From Escherichia phage vB_EcoP-CHD5UKE1: 64,000 nucleotides of DNA. Positions 2,030 to 61,705 of this stretch are shown piece after piece. The stretch is from sequence record NC_070989.1; one strand, given 5' to 3'. Each line of letters starts with the position of its first letter. Position 1 is the first letter of the stretch. The position numbers and the translations under genes were made by a program. The notes under the pieces were generated by a model. The model searched no databases. It was not told the DNA's origin and saw only the letters and a program-made list of their open reading frames with translations.

Positions 2030-3571
2030 ATGTCATTAGATAAACAAATTTATGAAGCTCTAACTGGTAACAACCTTAGTGTAGAGGAAAAGAAAGCACT
2101 ATTGAATATGTTGAAAGAGCGTGACCAATGGAGGAAGTATAATAAGATTTTGTCTTTCAAGGCGTATGACTTCCAAAAGAAATTTTATGCAGCAGGATTG
2201 AAGCATCGCTTTAGATTCTTGTGTGCAGCGAACCGTGTTGGTAAATCTTACAGCGAGGCATACGAGTTTGCTTGTCATGTCACAGGTCGCTACCCAACTT
2301 GGTGGACAGGATATAAATTTAAAAGACCTATCTTAGCATGGGCAGTTGGTATTACAGGGGATTCCACAAGGAAAGTATTGCAAAAGGAATTGTTTGGTAC
2401 ACCTATCGGAAAGGATACAAATTTATTGGGGACAGGTGTCATTCCTCGTGATGCTATCGTCATTGACACGATAGAACGAGATGGTAACAAACTTCAAATC
2501 GTACAAATCAAACATCAAAACGAAAGAGGAGAGTTTGACGGTTTAAGTACATTAGAATTCCGTTCAACCCAACAGGGTGAACACACATTGATGGGTGCAA
2601 CAGTTGACTACATTTGGTTAGACGAAGAAGATCCATACGAGTCTATGGCTATATTCGCACAGTGCGTCACACGTACACTCACAACTAAAGGTCTAGTTAC
2701 AATTACAGCTACACCAGAGAACGGTTTAACTGAACTGGTAGATAAATTCATGAAAGGTGAAGGGGATGAGAGCACAGGTTCTCTATATTTCCAGAATGCT
2801 TCTTGGTGGGATGCTCATGTAGACTTAGGTGGACATATCACTGACCAAGATATAAAAGATATGACTGAAGGTATTCCAGCGTGGCAGTTAGAGATGCGTT
2901 CGAAAGGTATGCCATTGTTAGGAAGTGGTTTGATTTATGATGTATCGGATGACACAATTAAATGTGAACCATTCGAAATTCCTGATACGTGGAAACGCGT
3001 CTGTGCAATTGATATTGGTATTGATCACCCAACTGCTGCTGTTTGGACAGCTTACGATGCAAACACGGATACTATCTATGTTTACGACTCATATAAAGAA
3101 GGTGGCTTTACTCCAGTGTATCATGCTCCAGCTATTAATGGTCGTGGTCAGTGGATTCCTGTCATCCTGCCGCACGATGCGGACAATATTGAGAAAGGTA
3201 GTGGATCATCTGTTGCTCAATTCTATAAGAATGCAGGAGTTAACGTACAGAGTGAGACCTTCTACAACAAAATTGGAATGGATGGTAAAAAGAACTTCTT
3301 TGTAGAACCGGGAATCACAGATATCCGAGAAAGAATGATGAGTGGACGCTTTAAAATCTTTAACACAGCCGCTAATGCTAAGCTATTCGAAGAGAAAGCT
3401 AGATATCACCGTAAGGTTGGTAAGATTATTAAAGAACATGATGACTTAATGGATGCAATGCGCTATTCAGCGTGCTCTGTTACACATCGTGGTCGCTCTA
3501 AGCATGACGTTAGCTACGGAAGTGCTTCTCTGTATGAGGCAAACGTAAGCAGATGGAATCAGAGCTACTAA
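2030..3571 (+). CDS. terL: terminase large subunit (513 aa)
   Basis: Walker A-like CAANRVGKS, Walker B-like IWLDEED, C-terminal nuclease-like region; located just upstream of portal. Confidence 0.88.
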   Translation: MSLDKQIYEALTGNNLSVEEKKALLNMLKERDQWRKYNKILSFKAYDFQKKFYAAGLKHRFRFLCAANRVGKSYSEAYEFACHVTGRYPTWWTGYKFKRPILAWAVGITGDSTRKVLQKELFGTPIGKDTNLLGTGVIPRDAIVIDTIERDGNKLQIVQIKHQNERGEFDGLSTLEFRSTQQGEHTLMGATVDYIWLDEEDPYESMAIFAQCVTRTLTTKGLVTITATPENGLTELVDKFMKGEGDESTGSLYFQNASWWDAHVDLGGHITDQDIKDMTEGIPAWQLEMRSKGMPLLGSGLIYDVSDDTIKCEPFEIPDTWKRVCAIDIGIDHPTAAVWTAYDANTDTIYVYDSYKEGGFTPVYHAPAINGRGQWIPVILPHDADNIEKGSGSSVAQFYKNAGVNVQSETFYNKIGMDGKKNFFVEPGITDIRERMMSGRFKIFNTAANAKLFEEKARYHRKVGKIIKEHDDLMDAMRYSACSVTHRGRSKHDVSYGSASLYEANVSRWNQSY

Positions 3572-3632
3572 AGCAGGGGGGAGGTTTGTCCTCCCTTCTT
3601 TTATTTAAGCTATCAACCGAGGGAGAGAATAG

Positions 3633-5876
3633 ATGGCTAAGCAAAAATATAGTGAAGAGGTGTTGGACGAGTTACGTGTTGACCTTCAACGTCGTTTTAA
3701 TTACGCTCAAGGCTACGTGGACATGGCTGTTAAGGGCTATGCTCGTGAAGCTTGGGAATATTTCTATGGTAACTTACCTGCACCAGTAACTGCTGGCAGC
3801 TCTAGTTGGGTAGATCGTACTGTTTGGGAATCTGTTAACGGTACATTGCAAGATATTATTAACGTATTCTGTTCTGGTGATGAAGCAGTTACTTTCGTAG
3901 CTGACAACCAACAGGATTCTGATGCTGCTGATGTAGCAACTAAATTAGTTAACCAAATTCTTCTGCGTGACAATCCGGGATACAATATTATCTCTTCTGC
4001 TGCACAAGAATGTCTGGTTACTCGTAACTCTTTTATCAAGTATTATTGGGATGAACAAACTTCTACTCAAACTGAAGAAGCTGAAGGTGTACCACCGGAA
4101 GCATTGGCTGCATATGTTCAGGGATTAGAAGCTGGTGGACTCAAGAATCTGGAAGTCTTCACTGAAGAAAATGAAGACGGTACAGTCGATGTTAAAGTTA
4201 CTTACGAACAAACTGTTAAACGTGTGAAAGTTGAATATGTTCCTTCAGAGCAAATCTTTGTTGATGAACATGCTACCTCTTTTGCAGATGCACAATACTT
4301 CTGTCATCGTGTACGTCGTTCTAAAGAAGATCTGGTTGCTATGGGCTTCCCTAAAGATGAGATTGAAGCATTCAACGACTGGACAGACACGATGGATACC
4401 ACTCAATCTACGGTTGCTTGGTCTCGTACTGACTGGCGTCAGGATATTGATGCTGATATTGGTACAGATACCGAAGATATCGCTTCTATGGTTTGGGTTT
4501 ATGAGCACTATATTCGTACTGGTGTTCTAGATAAGAATAAAGAGTCTAAACTCTATCAGGTTATTCAAGCTGGTGAGCATATCCTTCACACTGAAGAAGT
4601 AACTCACATTCCGTTTGTAACCTTCTGTCCGTATCCGATTCCGGGTTCCTTCTATGGTCAATCGGTCTATGACATTACGAAAGATATTCAAGATTTACGT
4701 ACCGCGTTAGTTCGTGGTTATATTGATAACGTCAACAATGCTAACTATGGTCGATACAAAGCTCTTGTTGGTGCATACGACCGTCGCTCTCTGCTTGATA
4801 ACCGTCCCGGTGGAGTGGTTGAAATGGAACGTCAGGACGCTATTGACCTGTTCCCATACCATAACCTACCTCAAGGTATTGACGGCCTTCTAGGCATGTC
4901 TGAGGAGCTTAAAGAGACACGTACCGGTGTAACCAAACTAGGCATGGGTATCAACCCTGATGTGTTTAAGAATGATAACGCTTATGCAACCGTAGGCTTG
5001 ATGATGAATGCTGCACAGAACCGCCTCCGTATGGTATGTCGTAACATTGCTCACAACGGTATGGTTGAACTGATGCGTGGTATTTACAATCTTATCAGAG
5101 AAAATGGTGAAGTTCCTATTGAGGTACAAACCCCTCGTGGTATGATTCAGGTAAATCCGAAACAATTACCAGCTCGTCACAATCTTCAAGTTGTTGTAGC
5201 TATCTCTCCTAATGAGAAAGCAGAACGTGCACAGAAACTGATTAGCTTGAAACAGCTGATTGCAGCAGATGCACAGTTAGCACCTCTCTTTGGTTTGGAG
5301 CAAGACCGTTACATGACTGCACAGATCTTTGAGTTGATGGGTATTAAAGATACACATAAATACCTTCTGCCTCTGGAACAGTATCAGCCTCCAGAACCTT
5401 CTCCGATGGAAATCCTCCAGCTCGAGATGACTAAAGCTCAGGTTGAGAACGTACAGGCTTCTTCTCAGAAGATGATTGCTGATGCATTCGACCAACGTGA
5501 ACGTACTACATTCGAACAGCAGAAAGCTGCGGATGAATTAAGTCTGCGTCAGGAAGAGTTGCAGTTCAAGCAAGAAAATGCAGCAGATGCAATGACTCTG
5601 GAAAACCGTAAAGAAGATAACAATGCTACTCTGGAACAAGCTAAGCACAAGTTAGCTCTTATGCAACAGCAGGTCCGTCAGTATGAATCTGTACTGAAAG
5701 AATTGCAGATGGTTATGTCTCATCAGGTAGACCAAGAGAAGATTGTTCAGCAAGCTCGTGTTCAGGACAAAACTTTGGAACTCCAAAAGAAAGAAGCTAA
5801 TGTAACTAAGAAAGAGCAACAAGCTTCTCTCAAAGATTCACGGATTCCAGGCAAACGTCTTGGAAGTAAAAAGTAA
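3633..5876 (+). CDS. portal protein (747 aa) with C-terminal coiled-coil
   Basis: Size, position between terminase and scaffold, Gln/Glu-rich coiled-coil tail. Confidence 0.8.
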   Translation: MAKQKYSEEVLDELRVDLQRRFNYAQGYVDMAVKGYAREAWEYFYGNLPAPVTAGSSSWVDRTVWESVNGTLQDIINVFCSGDEAVTFVADNQQDSDAADVATKLVNQILLRDNPGYNIISSAAQECLVTRNSFIKYYWDEQTSTQTEEAEGVPPEALAAYVQGLEAGGLKNLEVFTEENEDGTVDVKVTYEQTVKRVKVEYVPSEQIFVDEHATSFADAQYFCHRVRRSKEDLVAMGFPKDEIEAFNDWTDTMDTTQSTVAWSRTDWRQDIDADIGTDTEDIASMVWVYEHYIRTGVLDKNKESKLYQVIQAGEHILHTEEVTHIPFVTFCPYPIPGSFYGQSVYDITKDIQDLRTALVRGYIDNVNNANYGRYKALVGAYDRRSLLDNRPGGVVEMERQDAIDLFPYHNLPQGIDGLLGMSEELKETRTGVTKLGMGINPDVFKNDNAYATVGLMMNAAQNRLRMVCRNIAHNGMVELMRGIYNLIRENGEVPIEVQTPRGMIQVNPKQLPARHNLQVVVAISPNEKAERAQKLISLKQLIAADAQLAPLFGLEQDRYMTAQIFELMGIKDTHKYLLPLEQYQPPEPSPMEILQLEMTKAQVENVQASSQKMIADAFDQRERTTFEQQKAADELSLRQEELQFKQENAADAMTLENRKEDNNATLEQAKHKLALMQQQVRQYESVLKELQMVMSHQVDQEKIVQQARVQDKTLELQKKEANVTKKEQQASLKDSRIPGKRLGSKK

Positions 5877-5885
5877 GGACGTAGA

Positions 5886-6122
5886 ATGAACATTAGGCAT
5901 CAATTCAATAAAGAGCACGCCGCCGCTTTGGCGGCTCTCAATCTTAACGGCAGTCTTGACGCAGCATTAGAGGCATTGAAAGAAAGACTCATGACAGAGA
6001 TAGTTCAAACCGAACCTCATGAGAATAAGAAACGCGAAGATTGTTATCAAAAGTATAAAATGGTGGGTAGCTTAAAAGAGGTCATAAAAGCTGCTATCAA
6101 TAGTGCAGGAGATGTTTCATAA
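5886..6122 (+). CDS. hypothetical protein (78 aa)
   Basis: ORF tightly packed between portal and scaffold genes. Confidence 0.45.
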   Translation: MNIRHQFNKEHAAALAALNLNGSLDAALEALKERLMTEIVQTEPHENKKREDCYQKYKMVGSLKEVIKAAINSAGDVS

Positions 6123-7198
6123 TGCCACAAGATAATTATATTGACCCGAACGATTTTAAATCTTTCCTCCAACTGGATGACCTGAAAGGTTCTTTCAAAG
6201 AAGAACTCGGTCGATTAGAATCTGAACAAGAACCAGAAGTGGACATTGACGATGAGTTCCCGGAAAAAGACGGTGACGATTTCGACTTTGATACCGACCT
6301 TCTCGGTGAAAGCGATGAGCTTAAGTTCGAAGATGAAGATGGTTGGGAAGATCGTGAAGAGGAAGGCGAAGTCGAAGAAGATGAAGATGAATCCTCTGAA
6401 GCAGAAGAACAAGAGGAAGAAGATTCAAGCGATGCAGAGTATGAAGATGATTCTGCTGACGGTGAAGGTGAAGTCTTTGATGTAGACTACGAAACCGTTA
6501 TCACCCTTCCTGATGGACGTGAGATGACTATTGAAGAACTTTCTAATGGCTATCTTACTGGTGCTGATATGACAGAACGAGAATCAACTCTTCAGCGTCA
6601 TATGGAAGCATTCGAGGAACGTGTAGTAGGTTTGAAGGATGTATTAGAACTAGCGTCTTTAGAAGCAGACCGAGTAATTGAAGATTATAACGGTTTTGAT
6701 TGGGACAAGCTTGCAGTAGAAGATCCTCAAGCATATGTTGAAAACAAACGTTTCCTAGAGAAGTACACAGCTCGCCGTCAACAGCTTGAACAGGCTCAGG
6801 TCCGTATTAAGCAGGAAGCAGCAGCTAAAGAGCAGGAAGCTTTCCAAGCCAAGAGTATTGAATGTGTTAATATTCTGAAACGTGAGATTCCAAATTGGGA
6901 TGAAAACTTATATCAAAACTTAATGCAATACGCAATTGACTTAGGTGCCACTGAAGAAGAAGTACTGAAGGAAAACCGTCCGTCTATTTTCCTAGCTCTC
7001 CATAAAGCATACCAATTTGATAAAGGTAAGCAACAGGTGATGGCTAAGATTAAACGTCCCGGTGCTCCACGCAAGGTTGTGAAGTCTGATGCTGCAAAGT
7101 CTCGCACTTCCAATAAGCCCGACAACGCTAAGGTTGCCAAGGCATTCGCAGAGGGTCGCGTTAGTCACGAAGACGCATTCAAATTCCTCGTAGATTAA
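6122..7198 (+). CDS. scaffolding protein (358 aa), highly acidic N-terminal region, coiled-coil
   Basis: Asp/Glu-rich low-complexity segment, helical charged repeats, position directly upstream of capsid gene. Confidence 0.6.
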   Translation: MPQDNYIDPNDFKSFLQLDDLKGSFKEELGRLESEQEPEVDIDDEFPEKDGDDFDFDTDLLGESDELKFEDEDGWEDREEEGEVEEDEDESSEAEEQEEEDSSDAEYEDDSADGEGEVFDVDYETVITLPDGREMTIEELSNGYLTGADMTERESTLQRHMEAFEERVVGLKDVLELASLEADRVIEDYNGFDWDKLAVEDPQAYVENKRFLEKYTARRQQLEQAQVRIKQEAAAKEQEAFQAKSIECVNILKREIPNWDENLYQNLMQYAIDLGATEEEVLKENRPSIFLALHKAYQFDKGKQQVMAKIKRPGAPRKVVKSDAAKSRTSNKPDNAKVAKAFAEGRVSHEDAFKFLVD

Positions 7199-7239
7199 TC
7201 GACAAATTAAATTATTAATAGTATAGGAGCTAACATAAC

Positions 7240-8298
7240 ATGGCTAATCCAACTTTATTTGTATCGTATGACCAGAATGGTAAAAAACTCTCTTTTGCTA
7301 ACTGGATTTCTGTTCTGTCCCCTCAGGATACCCCGTTCGTATCTATGACCGGTAAAGAGTCTATCAACCAGACTATCTTTAGCTGGCAGACCGATGCACT
7401 GGCAAGCGTTGACGGTAATAACGCACACGTCGAAGGCTCTCGTGCTGAAGACGGCGAAATGAAACCGACTGTTATCAAATCTAACGTTACTCAGATTCTG
7501 CGTAAGGTTGTTCGCGTTTCTGATACTGCTAACACCACCGCTAACTACGGTCGTGGTCGTGAGCTGATGTATCAGCTGGAGAAGAAAGGTAAAGAGATCA
7601 AGCGTGACCTCGAGAAAATCCTTCTGTCCGGTCAGGCTCGTACCGATGTTCTGGCTGACCAGTATCTTACTAACTCCGCAGCTGATCCTGCTGTTGCTGG
7701 TCTGAATGACACCCATGCAGCTCGTAAGACTGGTGCATTCCAGTTCCTGTGTGCTCACGGTGGTCTGGCTGGTGGCGTTGTTGACAAGACCAAGAATGGT
7801 CCTGCTGACCCGGATACTGGTGCAGTAACTGTTAAAGTTGCACAGAATGCTTCTAACCCGACCACTAACATCGGTTTTGATGAAGCTGATATCTTTGATA
7901 TGACTCTGCAACTGTACACCGCTGGTTCTGAAGCAGATATCATCATGATTAACCCGGCTCATGCTAAGATCTTCGCTGGTCTGCAAGAAAATACTCAGGG
8001 TTCACGTAAGCGTATCTTTGAGAACACCAAGCAGTTCATCTACGAAGTTAACAGCATCACTGACCCGCTGGGCCAGAGCTACAAAATCATCGTTAACCGT
8101 TGGATGCCTACCGATGCAGTTTACTTCTTCCGTAGCGCTGACTGGACTCAGATGGTTCTGCGTGCTCCGAAACGTACTGAACTGGCTAAAGACGGTTCTT
8201 ACGAGAAGTGGATGATTGAAATGGAAGTTGGTCTGCGTCACCGCAACCCGTATGCTTCCGGAGTTCTGTTCACTGCTGCGGGAAAGGTGGTGGCGTAA
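7240..8298 (+). CDS. major capsid protein (352 aa)
   Basis: Position after scaffold, size, strong terminator downstream, slippery site at its 3' end. Confidence 0.72.
   Translation: MANPTLFVSYDQNGKKLSFANWISVLSPQDTPFVSMTGKESINQTIFSWQTDALASVDGNNAHVEGSRAEDGEMKPTVIKSNVTQILRKVVRVSDTANTTANYGRGRELMYQLEKKGKEIKRDLEKILLSGQARTDVLADQYLTNSAADPAVAGLNDTHAARKTGAFQFLCAHGGLAGGVVDKTKNGPADPDTGAVTVKVAQNASNPTTNIGFDEADIFDMTLQLYTAGSEADIIMINPAHAKIFAGLQENTQGSRKRIFENTKQFIYEVNSITDPLGQSYKIIVNRWMPTDAVYFFRSADWTQMVLRAPKRTELAKDGSYEKWMIEMEVGLRHRNPYASGVLFTAAGKVVA
8280..8286 (+). promoter_or_regulatory. Candidate -1 programmed ribosomal frameshift heptamer G_GGA_AAG in capsid frame, 10 nt before the capsid stop
   Basis: X_XXY_YYZ heptamer identical to the lambda G-T slippery sequence; the -1 frame is open for 179 codons downstream. 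Confidence 0.5.
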
Positions 8299-8822
8299 CA
8301 GTAGACAGTGTGACTGTTAGCCCTGCGTCTTTAGCAAGCCTAGAGACAGGGGCTACTCGGCAGTTCACTGCAAGCGCGGAGAAAAGTGATGGTTCTACCG
8401 AAACAACTGGCTTTACTTGGTCAGTGACAGGAGGTGGTTCTATCACTCAGTCGGGTTTGTATACTGCTCCGAGTGCGTCTCAATCCACTGATGTATCCAT
8501 TACTGCAACTTTAGAAGGTGTTTCTGGTACAGCAACCATTTCTGAAATTGTTGCTCCTGCTCCTACTATTGTAGCTAAGGGTCCAATTACAGGTAAAACT
8601 GGTGGTTCCTCCACTAATTTCACTACCATGTTTACTGTAACTAATTCTGCTGCTGCGGATTACACGTTTGTTGTAATTCCTACAGAAGCTGGTACAGTAA
8701 GCGCAGCTGGTGCGTTAACCTTAGATGCTGCTGCAAGTGGCGAAGTTACTGTTCAAGCAAGTTTGACAGCTGATCCGTCCATCAATGCAACATGCACTTT
8801 TACTGGTGTAACACCTGCTTAA
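8280..8822 (+). CDS. -1 frame C-terminal extension of capsid protein carrying a bacterial Ig-like (Big_2-type) domain
   Basis: Track ORF 8310-8822 has no RBS and begins at GTG; its frame is open back to the slippery site; sequence TVSPASLASLETGATRQFTASA is Big_2-like. Confidence 0.5.
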   Translation, partial: GKGGGVTVDSVTVSPASLASLETGATRQFTASAEKSDGSTETTGFTWSVTGGGSITQSGLYTAPSASQSTDVSITATLEGVSGTATISEIVAPAPTIVAKGPITGKTGGSSTNFTTMFTVTNSAAADYTFVVIPTEAGTVSAAGALTLDAAASGEVTVQASLTADPSINATCTFTGVTPA

Positions 8823-8829
8823 AACTAGA

Positions 8830-8853
8830 CCCTGCCTTCGGGCGGGGTTTTTT
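8830..8853 (+). terminator. rho-independent terminator (CCCTGCC-TTCG-GGCGGGG + TTTTTT)
   Basis: GC-rich hairpin with T6 run right after stop at 8822. Confidence 0.75.
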
Positions 8854-8923
8854 CGTTTTAAGACCTATACAAGCAAGTGTGTAATGTATATTCTTTGTCT
8901 ACATATAACAAGGAGGACAACCT

Positions 8924-9676
8924 ATGGCAATGCCAGATGTTCAATACCCCATCAATACCTATGGGTGGCTAAAGAAGGCCGTGGCCCTCTGGGCAGATAG
9001 GGACGACGATGAATTTGTTAATCAAATTCCAAACTTTATTAACTTTGCAGAGAAAGAGATTTATCGTAACTTACGTATCCCCCCTCTGGAAAAAGAAGTG
9101 TATTTAGATATTAAAGATGGAGTAGCTTATATTCCTCCTGATTACCTAGAAGCTCAATGGATGATGAGAGCCAAAGATGGTACAATCTTCCAAGTAACAT
9201 CTCCTGAAGAGATTAGCTATCGTAGACAGCATGGAACAATTAACCCATCTCACTGGAACAACCAACCTGTTAACTTTGCTCGTTTCGGTAGTCGTTTCAT
9301 TTTCTATCCTAGCATTGAAGCAGATACTCCGTACTACCCTGATGATGGAAGCCCTTTGATTCCAGCAGAAAACTCAGTGATTCTTAGCTATTATGCAGAC
9401 CCACCGGAATTCCATGAAGATACAGATACTAGTACTATTCTTACTATAGCACCAGAACTTCTTCTGTACTTCACCCTACGTCATGCTTGTCTCTTTGTTC
9501 AAGATGATAATGGTGTTCAGAAATGGTCAGCATTAGGAAAAGCTATCCTTGATGAAATGGTAGAACAGAATAAGAAACAAGAGTACTCAGGTTCACCTAT
9601 CGCAATTCCGAATAACATGACTCGACTTCAGAGCAGCCTGCCTGATATTTATGGTATTCGTACTTCTCGTGTATAA
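8924..9676 (+). CDS. virion structural protein (250 aa), possible head-tail adaptor
   Basis: Position between capsid and tail fiber genes; AGGAGGA RBS. Confidence 0.45.
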   Translation: MAMPDVQYPINTYGWLKKAVALWADRDDDEFVNQIPNFINFAEKEIYRNLRIPPLEKEVYLDIKDGVAYIPPDYLEAQWMMRAKDGTIFQVTSPEEISYRRQHGTINPSHWNNQPVNFARFGSRFIFYPSIEADTPYYPDDGSPLIPAENSVILSYYADPPEFHEDTDTSTILTIAPELLLYFTLRHACLFVQDDNGVQKWSALGKAILDEMVEQNKKQEYSGSPIAIPNNMTRLQSSLPDIYGIRTSRV

Positions 9677-19260: not shown

Positions 19261-20229
19261 ATGGGTGCAGGTGGTTTTCGTAAGAATACTGGTCGCAACA
19301 ACACCACACTCCCGTACAACGTTGGGTTTCTCAATAATGTACAGGACACAGAAACATATAACGTAGCCGTGTATGATGAATTACAAAAAGTTAGCACAGC
19401 TACTAACCAAATGTTCCAAGCTATAGATGAAATTCACGAAGAGATTGATGTTCGTATTAAAGCTCTTAATGCAATGAATCTACAATTTGATGAGCTTGAG
19501 AATAGAATTACTACAGAGATAGAAACAGCTATTGCAGATATCCAAACACAGATGGGGAATCTCTCCACTGAAGATATTTGGGATAATTCTGTTCAACCTC
19601 CTGTAAAATTAGAAAGCACTGTATCTGGCTTTAAAACAAGTATTGAGGGTAACACAACTAAGATTCAAACGGTAGAAGGTATTGTCAACGACCAAGGTCA
19701 AGAGATTGCTTTAGTTCAGACAGAGATTCAAAATATTAATGGAAGCCTCTCTCAGTATATGAAGCTTTCTGAATATGAAGCTACATGGGGAGTCAACTCT
19801 ACAGTAAACGGAAGATATGCTGGGGTCAAGTTAACTAACAACGGAACAAACAGTCAATTCCAAGTAACAGCTAACAAGTTTATTGTTGGTGATGGCAGCT
19901 CTGGTAACACACCTTTTGTGTTTGAGGGTGGTAGGGCTAGAATGGAATTCGCTGACATAAAGAACGTCAATATCACAACAGCTCAGATTGCTAACGCTAG
20001 AATCCAATGGGCACAGATCGATAACGTATCCATCTCCAATGCTCAGATTCAGAACTTGTCAGCGGATAAGATTACTGCTGGCTCTATGTGGGGTTCTAAC
20101 TGGAGACTTACTGTTGGTGGGGACTTTGTTATGGGTGGCACAGGTGGGGCACAATTGTGGATGAATGGTAACAGAATAGACTTCTACGATGGAAGCGGTG
20201 CTCTGAGAATCAGGATAGGGAGTTGGTAA
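19261..20229 (+). CDS. tail fiber-like protein (322 aa from ATG 19261) with coiled-coil and AQIxN repeats
   Basis: GGAGGAA RBS before ATG 19261; the track start at 19195 overlaps the terminator. Confidence 0.5.
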   Translation: MGAGGFRKNTGRNNTTLPYNVGFLNNVQDTETYNVAVYDELQKVSTATNQMFQAIDEIHEEIDVRIKALNAMNLQFDELENRITTEIETAIADIQTQMGNLSTEDIWDNSVQPPVKLESTVSGFKTSIEGNTTKIQTVEGIVNDQGQEIALVQTEIQNINGSLSQYMKLSEYEATWGVNSTVNGRYAGVKLTNNGTNSQFQVTANKFIVGDGSSGNTPFVFEGGRARMEFADIKNVNITTAQIANARIQWAQIDNVSISNAQIQNLSADKITAGSMWGSNWRLTVGGDFVMGGTGGAQLWMNGNRIDFYDGSGALRIRIGSW

Positions 20230-60508: not shown

Positions 60509-61705
60509 TTATTTTCCTAAAAATAATCCGCTCATAATACCATCCCACTCAGAGGACGGAATCACTGAATACTCCGAACTTTGGTCCAGAGTTCCGCTAC
60601 TGAATCGCTGAACAATATTATAAATATTGAACATATCTTTAGTCTCAGCGCGATAAGCGTAGACTAATCTGTCAGCTGTTCTTTCATCTTTAGATACCCG
60701 ACGAGCAAAGGTAACCAGAAGATTGTCACCTTTGAGTATTTCTGACTCATCTTTTACTAGATCAGGGTGCATAACCGGCAAGAACATTGAGTTGTTCACT
60801 CGTAACTCTGCTGTTTCATCATTCTCATAATGAATCCATTTAAAATCTTCATCACGAAAGTGACCGCATCCATCTCTGTATGACTGTTGACGCCAAGGCA
60901 CTTGAAATGCTTCAGCGTATTTATCAGCCATGCCAACCGTAAATAGTGACGCTGGGAAAATACAAGCATCCCAATCGTTACCAACCAGAGTTGCTTTCGT
61001 TTCGCCCAAGAGGTTAGTGTAAGTGCTAACCATTCGTGAGTAAACATAAGCCTGAAGGATTGTCCAGCCTTCAACCAACCATTTATGGAGGAAGGTTTCA
61101 ACTTGACTCTCTTCATCTTCACAATAGAAGGTTCGGTCTAACATCAAATAGAACAGACAACGATCAGCAGGGATATTCTCAGTTGCTACCCCCATAAAAC
61201 CTTTATCGTGCCAGCGTAAACAGGAGGGACGATCTTTGTCCACAAATGCTTCCATAGCTTCCAGTACAGCACGAGGTGTGGTTCGGTGTTCAGGGTTTTT
61301 GTCGTTCCAACGTTCGATGTTATTTTTAGGAGGTGTGTCTTCATCTTCATATGAACACCAACTCAAAGCTTCAGCTACGTGCTTTTCATCACGCCAACGT
61401 CTAAAGCCTAACATCTTCATATGAGTTCCAGAGTTCCAGATATGCTTAATACTGCTCATATCCATCTCTCGACTTAATAAGAACTCTTCCCCATCAGCAC
61501 TACGAACGTTAGCATCTTCATGCCACACTCGAACGTGCATGTTCCATCCATGAGTTGCCTCATACATGTTAGGGTCGAAGTAGTCATCATCTTCGTCGTC
61601 TTCATCAACGCCACCATTATAGTTGCGAAGCTGAAGGAACCCATAACAAGGAGGGTTGACCGTTAAAACATTACCTTCAGTATCTTCTAATGTTACTGGA
61701 AACAT
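60509..61705 (-). CDS. hypothetical acidic protein (398 aa) within the ligase cassette
   Basis: ORF; no recognisable motif. Confidence 0.45.
   Translation of the reverse strand: MFPVTLEDTEGNVLTVNPPCYGFLQLRNYNGGVDEDDEDDDYFDPNMYEATHGWNMHVRVWHEDANVRSADGEEFLLSREMDMSSIKHIWNSGTHMKMLGFRRWRDEKHVAEALSWCSYEDEDTPPKNNIERWNDKNPEHRTTPRAVLEAMEAFVDKDRPSCLRWHDKGFMGVATENIPADRCLFYLMLDRTFYCEDEESQVETFLHKWLVEGWTILQAYVYSRMVSTYTNLLGETKATLVGNDWDACIFPASLFTVGMADKYAEAFQVPWRQQSYRDGCGHFRDEDFKWIHYENDETAELRVNNSMFLPVMHPDLVKDESEILKGDNLLVTFARRVSKDERTADRLVYAYRAETKDMFNIYNIVQRFSSGTLDQSSEYSVIPSSEWDGIMSGLFLGK

Follow-up and report, generated by a model that had tools for sequence, protein, structure and literature searches.

A probable −1 ribosomal frameshift joining tandem Ig-like domains to the major capsid protein of a Kuravirus

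The window analysed here is a stretch of 64,000 nucleotides from Escherichia phage vB_EcoP-CHD5UKE1 (NC_070989.1), a Kuravirus, that is, an E. coli phage of the phiEco32/SU10 type. Its nucleotide identity is 99.2% to LorandFenyves_Bas91, 98.7% to SU10 and 98.0% to phiEco32. The major capsid protein gene, and the elements that follow from it or lie close to its 3′ end, are arranged as follows.

7225..7229, + strand: Shine-Dalgarno sequence AGGAG of the capsid gene, read from the sequence, 10 nt 5′ of the ATG
7240..8298, + strand: major capsid protein gene, zero frame, 352 aa, 38.6 kDa, HK97 fold
8280..8286, + strand: slippery heptamer G_GGA_AAG in X_XXY_YYZ phase, read from the sequence and conserved in relatives
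8286..8822, + strand: −1 frame extension, 178 codons plus TAA (8820-8822), from the open frame and pN/pS
8286..8294, + strand: Gly-Gly-Gly linker, the first three −1 codons (GGT GGT GGC)
8287..8326, + strand: candidate 3′ stimulatory hairpin, which includes the zero-frame stop, proposed from folding
8295..8549, + strand: predicted Ig-like (Big_2-type) domain 1, extension residues ~4-88, AlphaFold strands E6-12 to E79-85
8296..8298, + strand: zero-frame stop TAA of the capsid gene, within the 5′ arm of the candidate hairpin
8559..8819, + strand: predicted Ig-like domain 2, extension residues ~92-178, from the AlphaFold model
8827..8860, + strand: intrinsic terminator closing the capsid transcription unit, a stem followed by a T-run

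The AGGAG at 7225..7229 is the only ribosome entry site for both capsid products. The zero-frame protein matches Pfam SU10_MCP (PF17236) with E = 1e-76 and, over residues 1-351, the solved SU10 capsid protein (PDB 7z45_A) with E = 1.9e-236. Its open reading frame ends GC[G GGA AAG] GTG GTG GCG TAA. A preliminary description of this DNA had placed a G_GGA_AAG heptamer at this point, and there it lies, in the X_XXY_YYZ phase of ORF 7240-8298; the spacing from heptamer to stop, given in that description as 10 nt, is 9 nt here, the difference being one of counting convention.

How much weight can the motif bear by itself? The bare heptamer occurs six times in the window where 7.5 occurrences are expected, so that there is no enrichment. 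Mechanically called open reading frames of at least 100 aa contain 75 in-phase X_XXY_YYZ sites in the window. Among these the capsid site yields by far the longest −1 product, extending 174 codons past the stop. Only one other in-phase site yields more than 50 codons, a TTTAAAT on the minus strand in ORF 60796-61122, and this ORF is spurious, nested in a real 398-aa gene at 60509-61705. With a motif that is not enriched and a −1 product that is the longest, what makes the capsid site significant is its context and how well it is conserved, rather than the motif by itself.

If a ribosome slips at this heptamer, what does it go on to read? The −1 frame continues GGT GGT GGC GTA ACA... and is indeed open, as first described, its length being 178 sense codons where about 179 had been given. 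The fusion product is thus 349 + 178 = 527 aa, with a mass of 55.6 kDa. The strong terminator said to follow the frame is also present, just 3′ of TAA 8820-8822: a 10-bp, G+C-rich stem at 8827-8850, with six G-C pairs, followed by TTTTCGTTTT. The same terminator is annotated in the SU10, Paul and 4E8 records.

The alignment-based AlphaFold model of the extension (pLDDT 96.1) shows two β-sandwiches in tandem, which we read as two Big_2-type Ig-like domains; a single-sequence model (pLDDT 53) was set aside. The best match to a solved fold is to the tandem Big domains of LigA (8gyr; E = 3.9e-10, TM 0.56). Further fold matches are to intimin, invasin, Big_2-CBM56 and the BIG2 domain of the phi29 capsid protein gp8, and the top viral match is to phage Paul's 894-aa capsid protein, itself a frameshift fusion. 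At the level of sequence the signal is fainter. The whole extension scores 23.1 bits against Pfam Big_2 (PF02368), marginally above the cut-off of 22.8, while domain 1 (18.8 bits) and domain 2 (15.6 bits) each fall below it; a sequence search of the extension against the PDB gave marginal matches only (E = 0.09-0.16). Domain 2 matches PHROG 13745 and 33551, both ‘Ig domain containing protein’. The Big_2-like assignment of the preliminary description stands as to fold, on the AlphaFold model and the LigA match, but its single domain becomes two in tandem.

Could the downstream frame be entered independently? It had been said to have neither a ribosome-binding site nor an ATG of its own, and we find the same: its first ATG is extension codon 114, and its first NTG, the GTG at 8310 (codon 9), has no GGAG-like motif 5-13 nt upstream. 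This GTG is replaced by ATA or GTA in L004, L005, L006, Paul, EK010 and EP335. There, as in Privateervirus, no NTG occurs until 33-60 codons into the first domain. Gene callers have assigned at least seven different N-termini to the downstream frame. The first β-strand of the model (residues 6-12) begins 5′ of GTG 8310. A diagnostic tryptic peptide predicted for the fusion is GGGVTVDSVTVSPASLASLETGATR, and the predicted frameshift junction peptide begins GGGVTVDSVTVSPASL. Because the first eight residues of GGGVTVDSVTVSPASLASLETGATR are encoded 5′ of GTG 8310, this peptide could arise only by frameshifting.

GGGAAAG is found in phase, 0-15 nt 5′ of the capsid stop, in all 18 of the Gordonclarkvirinae and Privateervirus sequences examined, the window included. 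It is invariant in these 18 while nearby synonymous sites vary, and its conservation extends as far as Proteus P59 and Cronobacter 009, with 57% capsid identity and with unrelated flanks and an unrelated extension. An open −1 frame of 169, 178-180, 370-372 or 545 codons follows the heptamer in every sequence examined but SU10: 545 codons in Paul and YF01, 370-372 in EK010 and EP335, 178 in phiEco32 and 169 in Privateervirus. In phage ES17 the frameshift site and the Ig frame are intact, a one-base excess of length falling outside the Ig frame. The extension has a pN/pS of 0.29-0.40 in the −1 frame, against 1.3-1.9 in the other two frames; there is clear purifying selection on it in the −1 frame only. 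The linker tells the same story on a smaller scale. It reads GGG, GSGG, GGS or VGSA in relatives, the differences in its length are multiples of three, and its nucleotide differences are silent in the −1 frame while they change residues in the zero frame (VVA, AAA, VAA, AGA).

Is the slip assisted by structure in the RNA? The region 8287-8326 can fold into a hairpin whose core stem pairs UAACAGU (8296-8302) with ACUGUUA (8313-8319), and which is extended by the pairing of 8292-8294 with 8320-8322 and of 8287-8290 with 8323-8326. Its free energy is −15.5 kcal/mol (z = −1.7). Every relative is able to form it: across 10 distinct relatives 90% of the cells are paired, against 35-50% with slid partners. 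Eight of the 15 pairs never vary in these relatives, and covariation among them is no better than in shuffles, 403 of 500 of which score as high. Wider folds were not significant against shuffled sequence (8287-8400, z = −1.5; 8260-8350, z = −0.4), and no Rfam or curated frameshift element matched the window at its gathering score, the sub-threshold matches at 8756-8871 all overlapping the terminator. We infer that this hairpin may act as a frameshift stimulator, from its sequence and predicted folding.

Two other candidates were considered. A GGAG at 8260-8263, 16 nt upstream of the heptamer, is GGCG or GGTG in most relatives; since it is not conserved, no 5′ stimulator is evident. The SU10 paper proposed a stem-loop (CTGCTGC/GGTGGTG) that puts the heptamer in its loop (PMC4281155), whereas the hairpin at 8287-8326 has the zero-frame stop inside its stem. 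The published structure can form in the window with G-U pairs, but it is unlikely to stimulate the shift, since a ribosome sitting on the heptamer would presumably already have melted it.

SU10 is the sole phage among the 18 sequences in which the −1 frame is broken, and the disrupting lesion is confined to SU10 records among the 62 records that match the junction. This bears on two conflicting sets of data. The cryo-EM study of SU10 found neither Ig density nor a larger band; because the −1 frame of SU10 is broken, this result has no bearing on the window. The mass spectrometry of SU10 published in 2014 includes a ‘9+10’ entry with a coverage of 50.29% (PMC4281155). However, 50.29% of ~527 aa is ~265 aa, whereas gp9 by itself has 275 aa covered; the entry can thus be accounted for with no peptides from the Ig part, and the support from this source is weak. 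Judged from the sequence, the loss of the SU10 extension looks like a palindrome-perfecting mutation in the hairpin. It is possible, if rather doubtful, that the hairpin is both a real stimulator and a quasipalindrome mutation hotspot and that, jointly with this, the Ig extension aids adherence to mucin or glycans in gut Kuraviruses such as ES17. A template switch would then have made the 7-nt arms a perfect 12-nt palindrome in SU10, with loss of the Ig extension. The study of ES17 itself attributed binding to mucin and heparan sulfate to the tail fibre, the only part tested.

The evidence best supports reading the locus as a −1 programmed frameshift by which the major capsid protein acquires Ig-like domains. 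Ribosomes would load at the capsid Shine-Dalgarno sequence and the ATG at 7240, and the majority would stop at TAA 8296 to give the 352-aa HK97-fold capsid protein. A minority, with GGA and AAG (8281-8286) in the P and A sites, would slip back one base and re-pair on GGG and AAA. These would read the Gly3 linker and the two Big_2-type domains as far as TAA 8820, yielding the 527-aa, 55.6-kDa fusion, which would be built into the prolate head as a minor component, its Ig domains facing outward. Frameshift rates are quoted as roughly 3.5% for lambda and 10% for T3/T7 (PMC9965538), and the SU10 head is reported to contain 715 capsid subunits. By analogy, rates in the range from lambda to T3/T7 would make the fusion some 25-70 of the 715 subunits of SU10. 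The Ig domains presumably serve to bind carbohydrates weakly on the surfaces of bacteria or mucosa.

Might the Ig-like frame instead be a separate gene, started at GTG 8310 and encoding a free 170-aa head-decoration protein, possibly by termination-reinitiation? Most GenBank records do carry two CDSs, ‘major head protein’ and ‘Ig domain containing protein’; the GTG is only 11 nt downstream of the capsid stop, and the authors of the SU10 cryo-EM study thought gp10 possibly a loosely bound minor capsid protein. But the GTG lacks a Shine-Dalgarno sequence within 5-13 nt and is not conserved among lineages, and the annotated N-termini vary by record and by caller. The stretch from the heptamer to GTG 8310 is moreover kept open and encodes a conserved Gly/Ser linker and the first β-strand, and relatives make capsid–Ig fusions in frame. 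We consider a separate gene improbable. Nor is it any more probable, and perhaps a shade less so, that the site and ORF are inherited while frameshifting is negligible or dispensable, virions containing in effect the 352-aa protein only, as reported for SU10. That phage, though lacking the extension, is viable and its heads are normal, the capsid proteins of Aeromonas and Vibrio relatives are bare, and our search found no strongly supported stimulatory RNA element. Yet in the window the −1 frame is intact, purifying selection on the extension is clear throughout the group, the heptamer is invariant (18/18), the lesion is limited to SU10 records among 62, and G_GGA_AAG in lambda G-T shifts at ~3.5% (figure from PMC9965538) without elaborate stimulators.

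A fusion might also be made by slippage of RNA polymerase, not of the ribosome, at GGGAAAG. The protein would be identical by either route, and the two are not strictly separable by analysis of the sequence. Productive transcriptional slippage, however, depends on homopolymers of A or T some 6-9 or more residues long, and the runs here are only G3 and A3. Phase would be irrelevant to the polymerase, yet the site is in phase in 18 of 18 sequences, and both motif and phase are exactly those of tandem tRNA slippage. Transcriptional slippage is accordingly the least probable of these alternatives, and by a wide margin an unlikely one.

We conclude that the major capsid gene of this phage very probably undergoes −1 programmed ribosomal frameshifting at its 3′ end, as described for Kuravirus-group phages. 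The frameshift fusion proposed in the preliminary description is borne out by the conserved in-phase heptamer, selection in the −1 frame, the unconserved downstream start and the linker changes that are silent in the −1 frame. It had been offered by implication as a new prediction, which it is not. The capsid–Ig frameshift is already published for Kuravirus-group phages, having been described for phiEco32, SU10, Paul, Privateer and YF01: for phiEco32 in passages of PMC4281155 and PMC7881722 and in a note to the Paul RefSeq record, which annotates the frameshift as a joined CDS, and for YF01 in PMC9965538. The present analysis itself supplies the phase of the heptamer, the open frame, conservation, the evidence that selection acts in the −1 frame, the missing independent start and the Ig fold; that both products are made and are present in virions comes from the literature on relatives, not from this genome. 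On SDS-PAGE the capsid protein of Privateer gives two bands, and mass spectrometry of virions detected the longer form (PMC7881722). We found no report of heptamer mutagenesis in the literature on these relatives.

How does the locus compare with known systems? The orthologous phiEco32 gp11/gp12 locus has 98% nucleotide identity and nothing material differs: heptamer, 9-nt distance to the stop, Gly linker and 178-codon two-domain extension are all shared. The linker nucleotides are GTGGTGG in the window, GTGGCGG in phiEco32 and GCGGCGG in SU10. Privateervirus, Privateer included, likewise has an in-phase heptamer at the capsid C-terminus and a −1 extension, of 169 codons; however, its capsid identity is 57%, its heptamer adjoins the stop (GGGAAAG TAA), its extension and downstream RNA are unrelated, and it lacks the Gly linker. 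Gene 10A/10B of T7 and gene 10 of T3 also use a −1 shift near the capsid end to make a minor, C-terminally extended subunit of the head, but their capsid family is unrelated by sequence. The T3 extension is Ig-like (PMC9965538, PMC5009743), while T7 has G_GU as X_XX of its shift site, an extension that is not Ig-like and a need for a distal 3′ element (PMC5009743). Lambda G-T differs in that its gene encodes a tail chaperone, the product being an assembly factor and not a virion decoration. We take the heptamer there to be the same G_GGA_AAG, read by the same E. coli tRNAs.

Other phages reach a similar protein by other means. Gp8 of phi29, with its BIG2 domain, resembles the predicted fusion, as do the head proteins (585-586 aa) of the Salmonella phages 7-11 and SE131: all carry a C-terminal Big_2-type Ig domain on an HK97-fold capsid protein of a prolate head, but by in-frame fusion. 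Phages 7-11 and SE131 fix the proportion of plain and tailed subunits by having two capsid genes, not by recoding. Relatives without the heptamer (SE131, A24, L012, L013) have their Ig-like tails in frame on a second capsid paralogue, which shows that for this capsid family the product under selection is a capsid–Ig fusion. Hoc of T4 also places Ig-like domains on the capsid exterior, with a proposed role in weak glycan adhesion (the bacteriophage-adherence-to-mucus model); unlike the fusion, Hoc is a decoration protein made separately, which attaches to heads once they are assembled.

For annotation, the two CDSs of most GenBank records, Bas91 included, should become one capsid gene with a joined 527-aa −1 product, as in the Paul RefSeq record. 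The lesion in SU10 may reconcile the conflicting proteomic and cryo-EM reports on that phage. Since ES17 belongs to the Kuravirus group, what the Ig domains do could be relevant to phage therapy aimed at the gut. Within one capsid family, then, there are three routes with respect to the display of Ig domains: recoding, duplicated capsid genes, and no display at all.

Over the capsid region 7240-8900 the window is 99.2% identical to LorandFenyves_Bas91, 98.7% to vB_EcoP_SU10 and 98.0% to phiEco32, all of them, like the window, Kuravirus (Gordonclarkvirinae), prolate-headed podophages of E. coli. Across positions 1-64000 no tRNA genes and no Rfam families at gathering score were found. The elements in and around the capsid gene are as follows.

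6122-7198: scaffolding gene, on one side of the capsid gene
7240-8298: major capsid protein gene, HK97-fold (Pfam SU10_MCP, E = 1e-76; solved SU10 capsid chain 7z45_A, E = 1.9e-236)
8296-8302 with 8313-8319: UAACAGU with ACUGUUA, the 7-bp core of the candidate hairpin, lying on either side of a variable loop and holding the zero-frame TAA
8827-8850: terminator-like hairpin 3' of the extension, a 10-bp G+C-rich stem with a T-run after it
8924-9676: adaptor gene (Pfam SU10_adaptor), on the other side of the capsid gene

In the zero frame the capsid gene ends ACT GCT GCG GGA AAG GTG GTG GCG TAA. The GGGAAAG at 8280-8286 lies in exact X_XXY_YYZ phase, and the stop codon (8296-8298) follows after 9 nt. 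The codons after a slip are GGT GGT GGC GTA ACA GTA GAC... (GGGVTVDSVTVSPASL...), and this -1 frame remains open for 178 codons, to the TAA at 8820-8822. The extension contains no ATG ahead of codon 114; its earliest NTG is the GTG at 8310, for which no Shine-Dalgarno motif occurs at a usable spacing. The slippery site, the open frame, the terminator behind it and the want of a start signal, all claimed in the preliminary description, are real, although the distance to the stop measures 9 nt.

The bare heptamer is not enriched in the window (6 observed, 7.5 expected). Of the 75 X_XXY_YYZ sites that lie in phase within mechanical ORFs of 100 aa or more, however, none yields a longer -1 product beyond the stop than this one (174 codons). 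Just one other exceeds 50 codons, an in-phase TTTAAAT with an apparent 109-codon -1 frame, and it is an artefact: its minus-strand ORF, 60796-61122, is mechanical and spurious, nested within a real 398-aa gene (60509-61705).

Might the extension instead be translated independently? For comparison, 29 related loci were examined. GGGAAAG stands in phase, 0-15 nt before the capsid stop, in 18 of 18 Gordonclarkvirinae and Privateervirus sequences; the former comprise the window, SU10, ShigP1, phiEco32, Paul, LAMP, 101114UKE3, EK010, EP335, 4E8, ES17 and four further IMG/VR contigs. It persists in the Privateervirus phages Proteus P59 and Cronobacter 009 at 57% capsid identity, where the flanking nucleotides and the extension are both unrelated and where the heptamer abuts the stop codon, in contrast to the 9-nt gap of the window. 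Pairwise pN/pS of the extension is 0.29-0.40 in the -1 frame but 1.3-1.9 in the other two. Directly 3' of the heptamer the -1 frame codes for a Gly/Ser linker (GGG, GSGG, GGS, VGSA), in which nucleotide differences are silent in the -1 frame while altering the zero-frame tail (VVA, AAA, VAA, AGA), and indels are multiples of three. Several lineages have ATA or GTA in place of the GTG at 8310; in these, and in Privateervirus, the earliest possible start falls 33-60 codons into the first domain. Public proteins called from the -1 frame have at least seven different internal starting points. Together, the conserved phase, the selection on the -1 frame, the linker pattern, the lost start codon and the disagreement among callers speak strongly against translation of the extension on its own and in favour of ribosomes arriving from the capsid frame. 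The observation, that these sequence elements are present, is confirmed, and we regard its interpretation, a capsid-Ig fusion made by -1 slippage, as very probable.

On G_GGA_AAG, the P-site tRNA-Gly can leave GGA to pair with GGG, and the A-site tRNA-Lys can likewise move from AAG to AAA. Since the window encodes no tRNAs, host tRNAs would make this slip. What might stimulate it? A hairpin at 8287-8326 is the candidate 3' stimulator. It can form in 10 of 10 distinct junction sequences, with pairing in 90% of cells against 35-50% in slid controls. But eight of its 15 pairs are invariant and shuffles show as much covariation, so that its role as a stimulator is one we infer only. The upstream GGAG (8260-8263) is not conserved among relatives and was rejected as a stimulator. 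Quoted shift rates are ~3.5% for lambda and ~10% for T3/T7 (PMC9965538). An SU10-type head has 715 subunits; by extrapolation, a rate between these values would place the Ig pair on ~25-70 of them.

The preliminary description had assigned the extension one Big_2-like domain. By sequence this match is a marginal one, at 23.1 bits where the cut-off is 22.8, and the two halves score 18.8 and 15.6 bits, both sub-threshold. AlphaFold failed from the single sequence (pLDDT 53) but with 24 homologues gave a model at pLDDT 96.1, in which two β-sandwich modules are linked by APAPT:

extension residues ~4-88: Ig-like module 1
extension residues ~92-178: Ig-like module 2

In this model the first β-strand (residues 6-12) starts ahead of residue 9, the one encoded by GTG 8310. 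Foldseek ranks the tandem Big domains of LigA from Leptospira first (E = 3.9e-10); intimin, invasin, Big_2-CBM56 and the phi29 capsid protein's BIG2 domain come next. Of the viral models, the frameshift-fusion "Major capsid protein" of phage Paul (894 aa) matches best, and a further match is the head protein of Salmonella phage 7-11 (585 aa). ES17 (MN508615; locus L029, 1241-1783), a Kuravirus that binds mucin and heparan-sulfate, retains an intact heptamer and an intact 178-codon Ig frame. The ES17 study credits the tail fibre, the only part tested, and left capsid Ig-like domains out of consideration.

Extension lengths are modular (169, 178-180, 370-372 and 545 codons). In Paul, EK010 and EP335 the extension diverges from window 8286-8822 much faster than the capsid body, and against loci L004, L005 and L006 its pS is 0.4-0.6, though at the capsid protein these loci share 93-98% identity with the window. 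Modular length and fast divergence suggest domain shuffling at this position.

The capsid-Ig frameshift of this phage group is already published. The YF01 paper describes -1 slippage and an extended capsid isoform across the whole Kuravirus-like group (PMC9965538); for Privateer the same signal is reported, together with two bands of capsid protein and detection by mass spectrometry (PMC7881722); the RefSeq record of Paul joins the CDS and remarks "Frameshift at GGGAAAG"; and capsid-Ig frameshifts (T3, A2, A118 and others) are a recognised class (PMC5009743). Most GenBank records, the nearest included, nevertheless annotate two separate CDSs at the junction. What our analysis adds is modest: a correction of annotation, the hairpin hypothesis and an explanation for SU10. 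Separately, positions 19785-19924 of MZ417522.1 ('Mycolicibacterium phage J1', 24,953 bp) match the capsid junction of the E. coli Kuravirus phages with 95.7% identity; the record is probably mislabelled or contaminated.

Why, then, was the extension not seen in SU10 by cryo-EM or SDS-PAGE (PMC9965538)? The YF01 authors noted a premature stop in the SU10 -1 frame, which we confirm: the frame is open for 11 codons only, and this closure would explain the absence. Relative to window 8296-8320, SU10 (KM044272; locus L001, 2557-2582) shows a cluster of three changes (G→C, G→C, +T), which turn TAACAGT-N10-ACTGTTA, with 7-nt arms, into the perfect palindrome TAACAGTAGACA-C-TGTCTACTGTTA, with 12-nt arms; the predicted hairpin free energy falls from -15.5 to -26.5 kcal/mol. 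All three raise self-complementarity, the signature of quasipalindrome template-switching, and the lesion looks like such a mutation, or possibly an assembly artefact. Among 62 junction-matching records, the two SU10 records alone match the SU10 junction at 99% or more (next best, 96.5%). The 2014 mass spectrometry of SU10 (Table 2) lists a '9+10' entry with 50.29% coverage and 22 peptides, against 78.1% of 352 aa and 23 peptides for gp9 alone (PMC4281155). We compute ~265 of ~527 aa for the former, fewer than the ~275 of gp9, and infer that this published support for the fusion requires no Ig-part peptide.

How do relatives lacking the heptamer build their heads? In the Aeromonas and Vibrio phages and in loci L008-L011 the capsid protein is bare and ends ...ASG(I/V)LKVKA. 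Salmonella SE131, Cronobacter A24 and loci L012 and L013 carry two to four tandem capsid paralogues:

SE131 (L017): 2485-3423; 3501-5261
A24 (L018): 3492-4430; 4511-5596
L012: 4001-4946; 5038 onwards
L013 (125-kb viral contig, four copies): 32-1346; 1413-2739; 2800-3868; 4001-4931

Some of these paralogues bear in-frame C-terminal tails of 58-274 residues, that of SE131 (274 residues) being annotated "Ig domain containing protein". Tandem paralogues of which some are tailed indicate that recoding and gene duplication are two routes to a mixture of plain and tailed subunits. Judged from these gene arrangements, duplication is an alternative to frameshifting for making mixed capsids.
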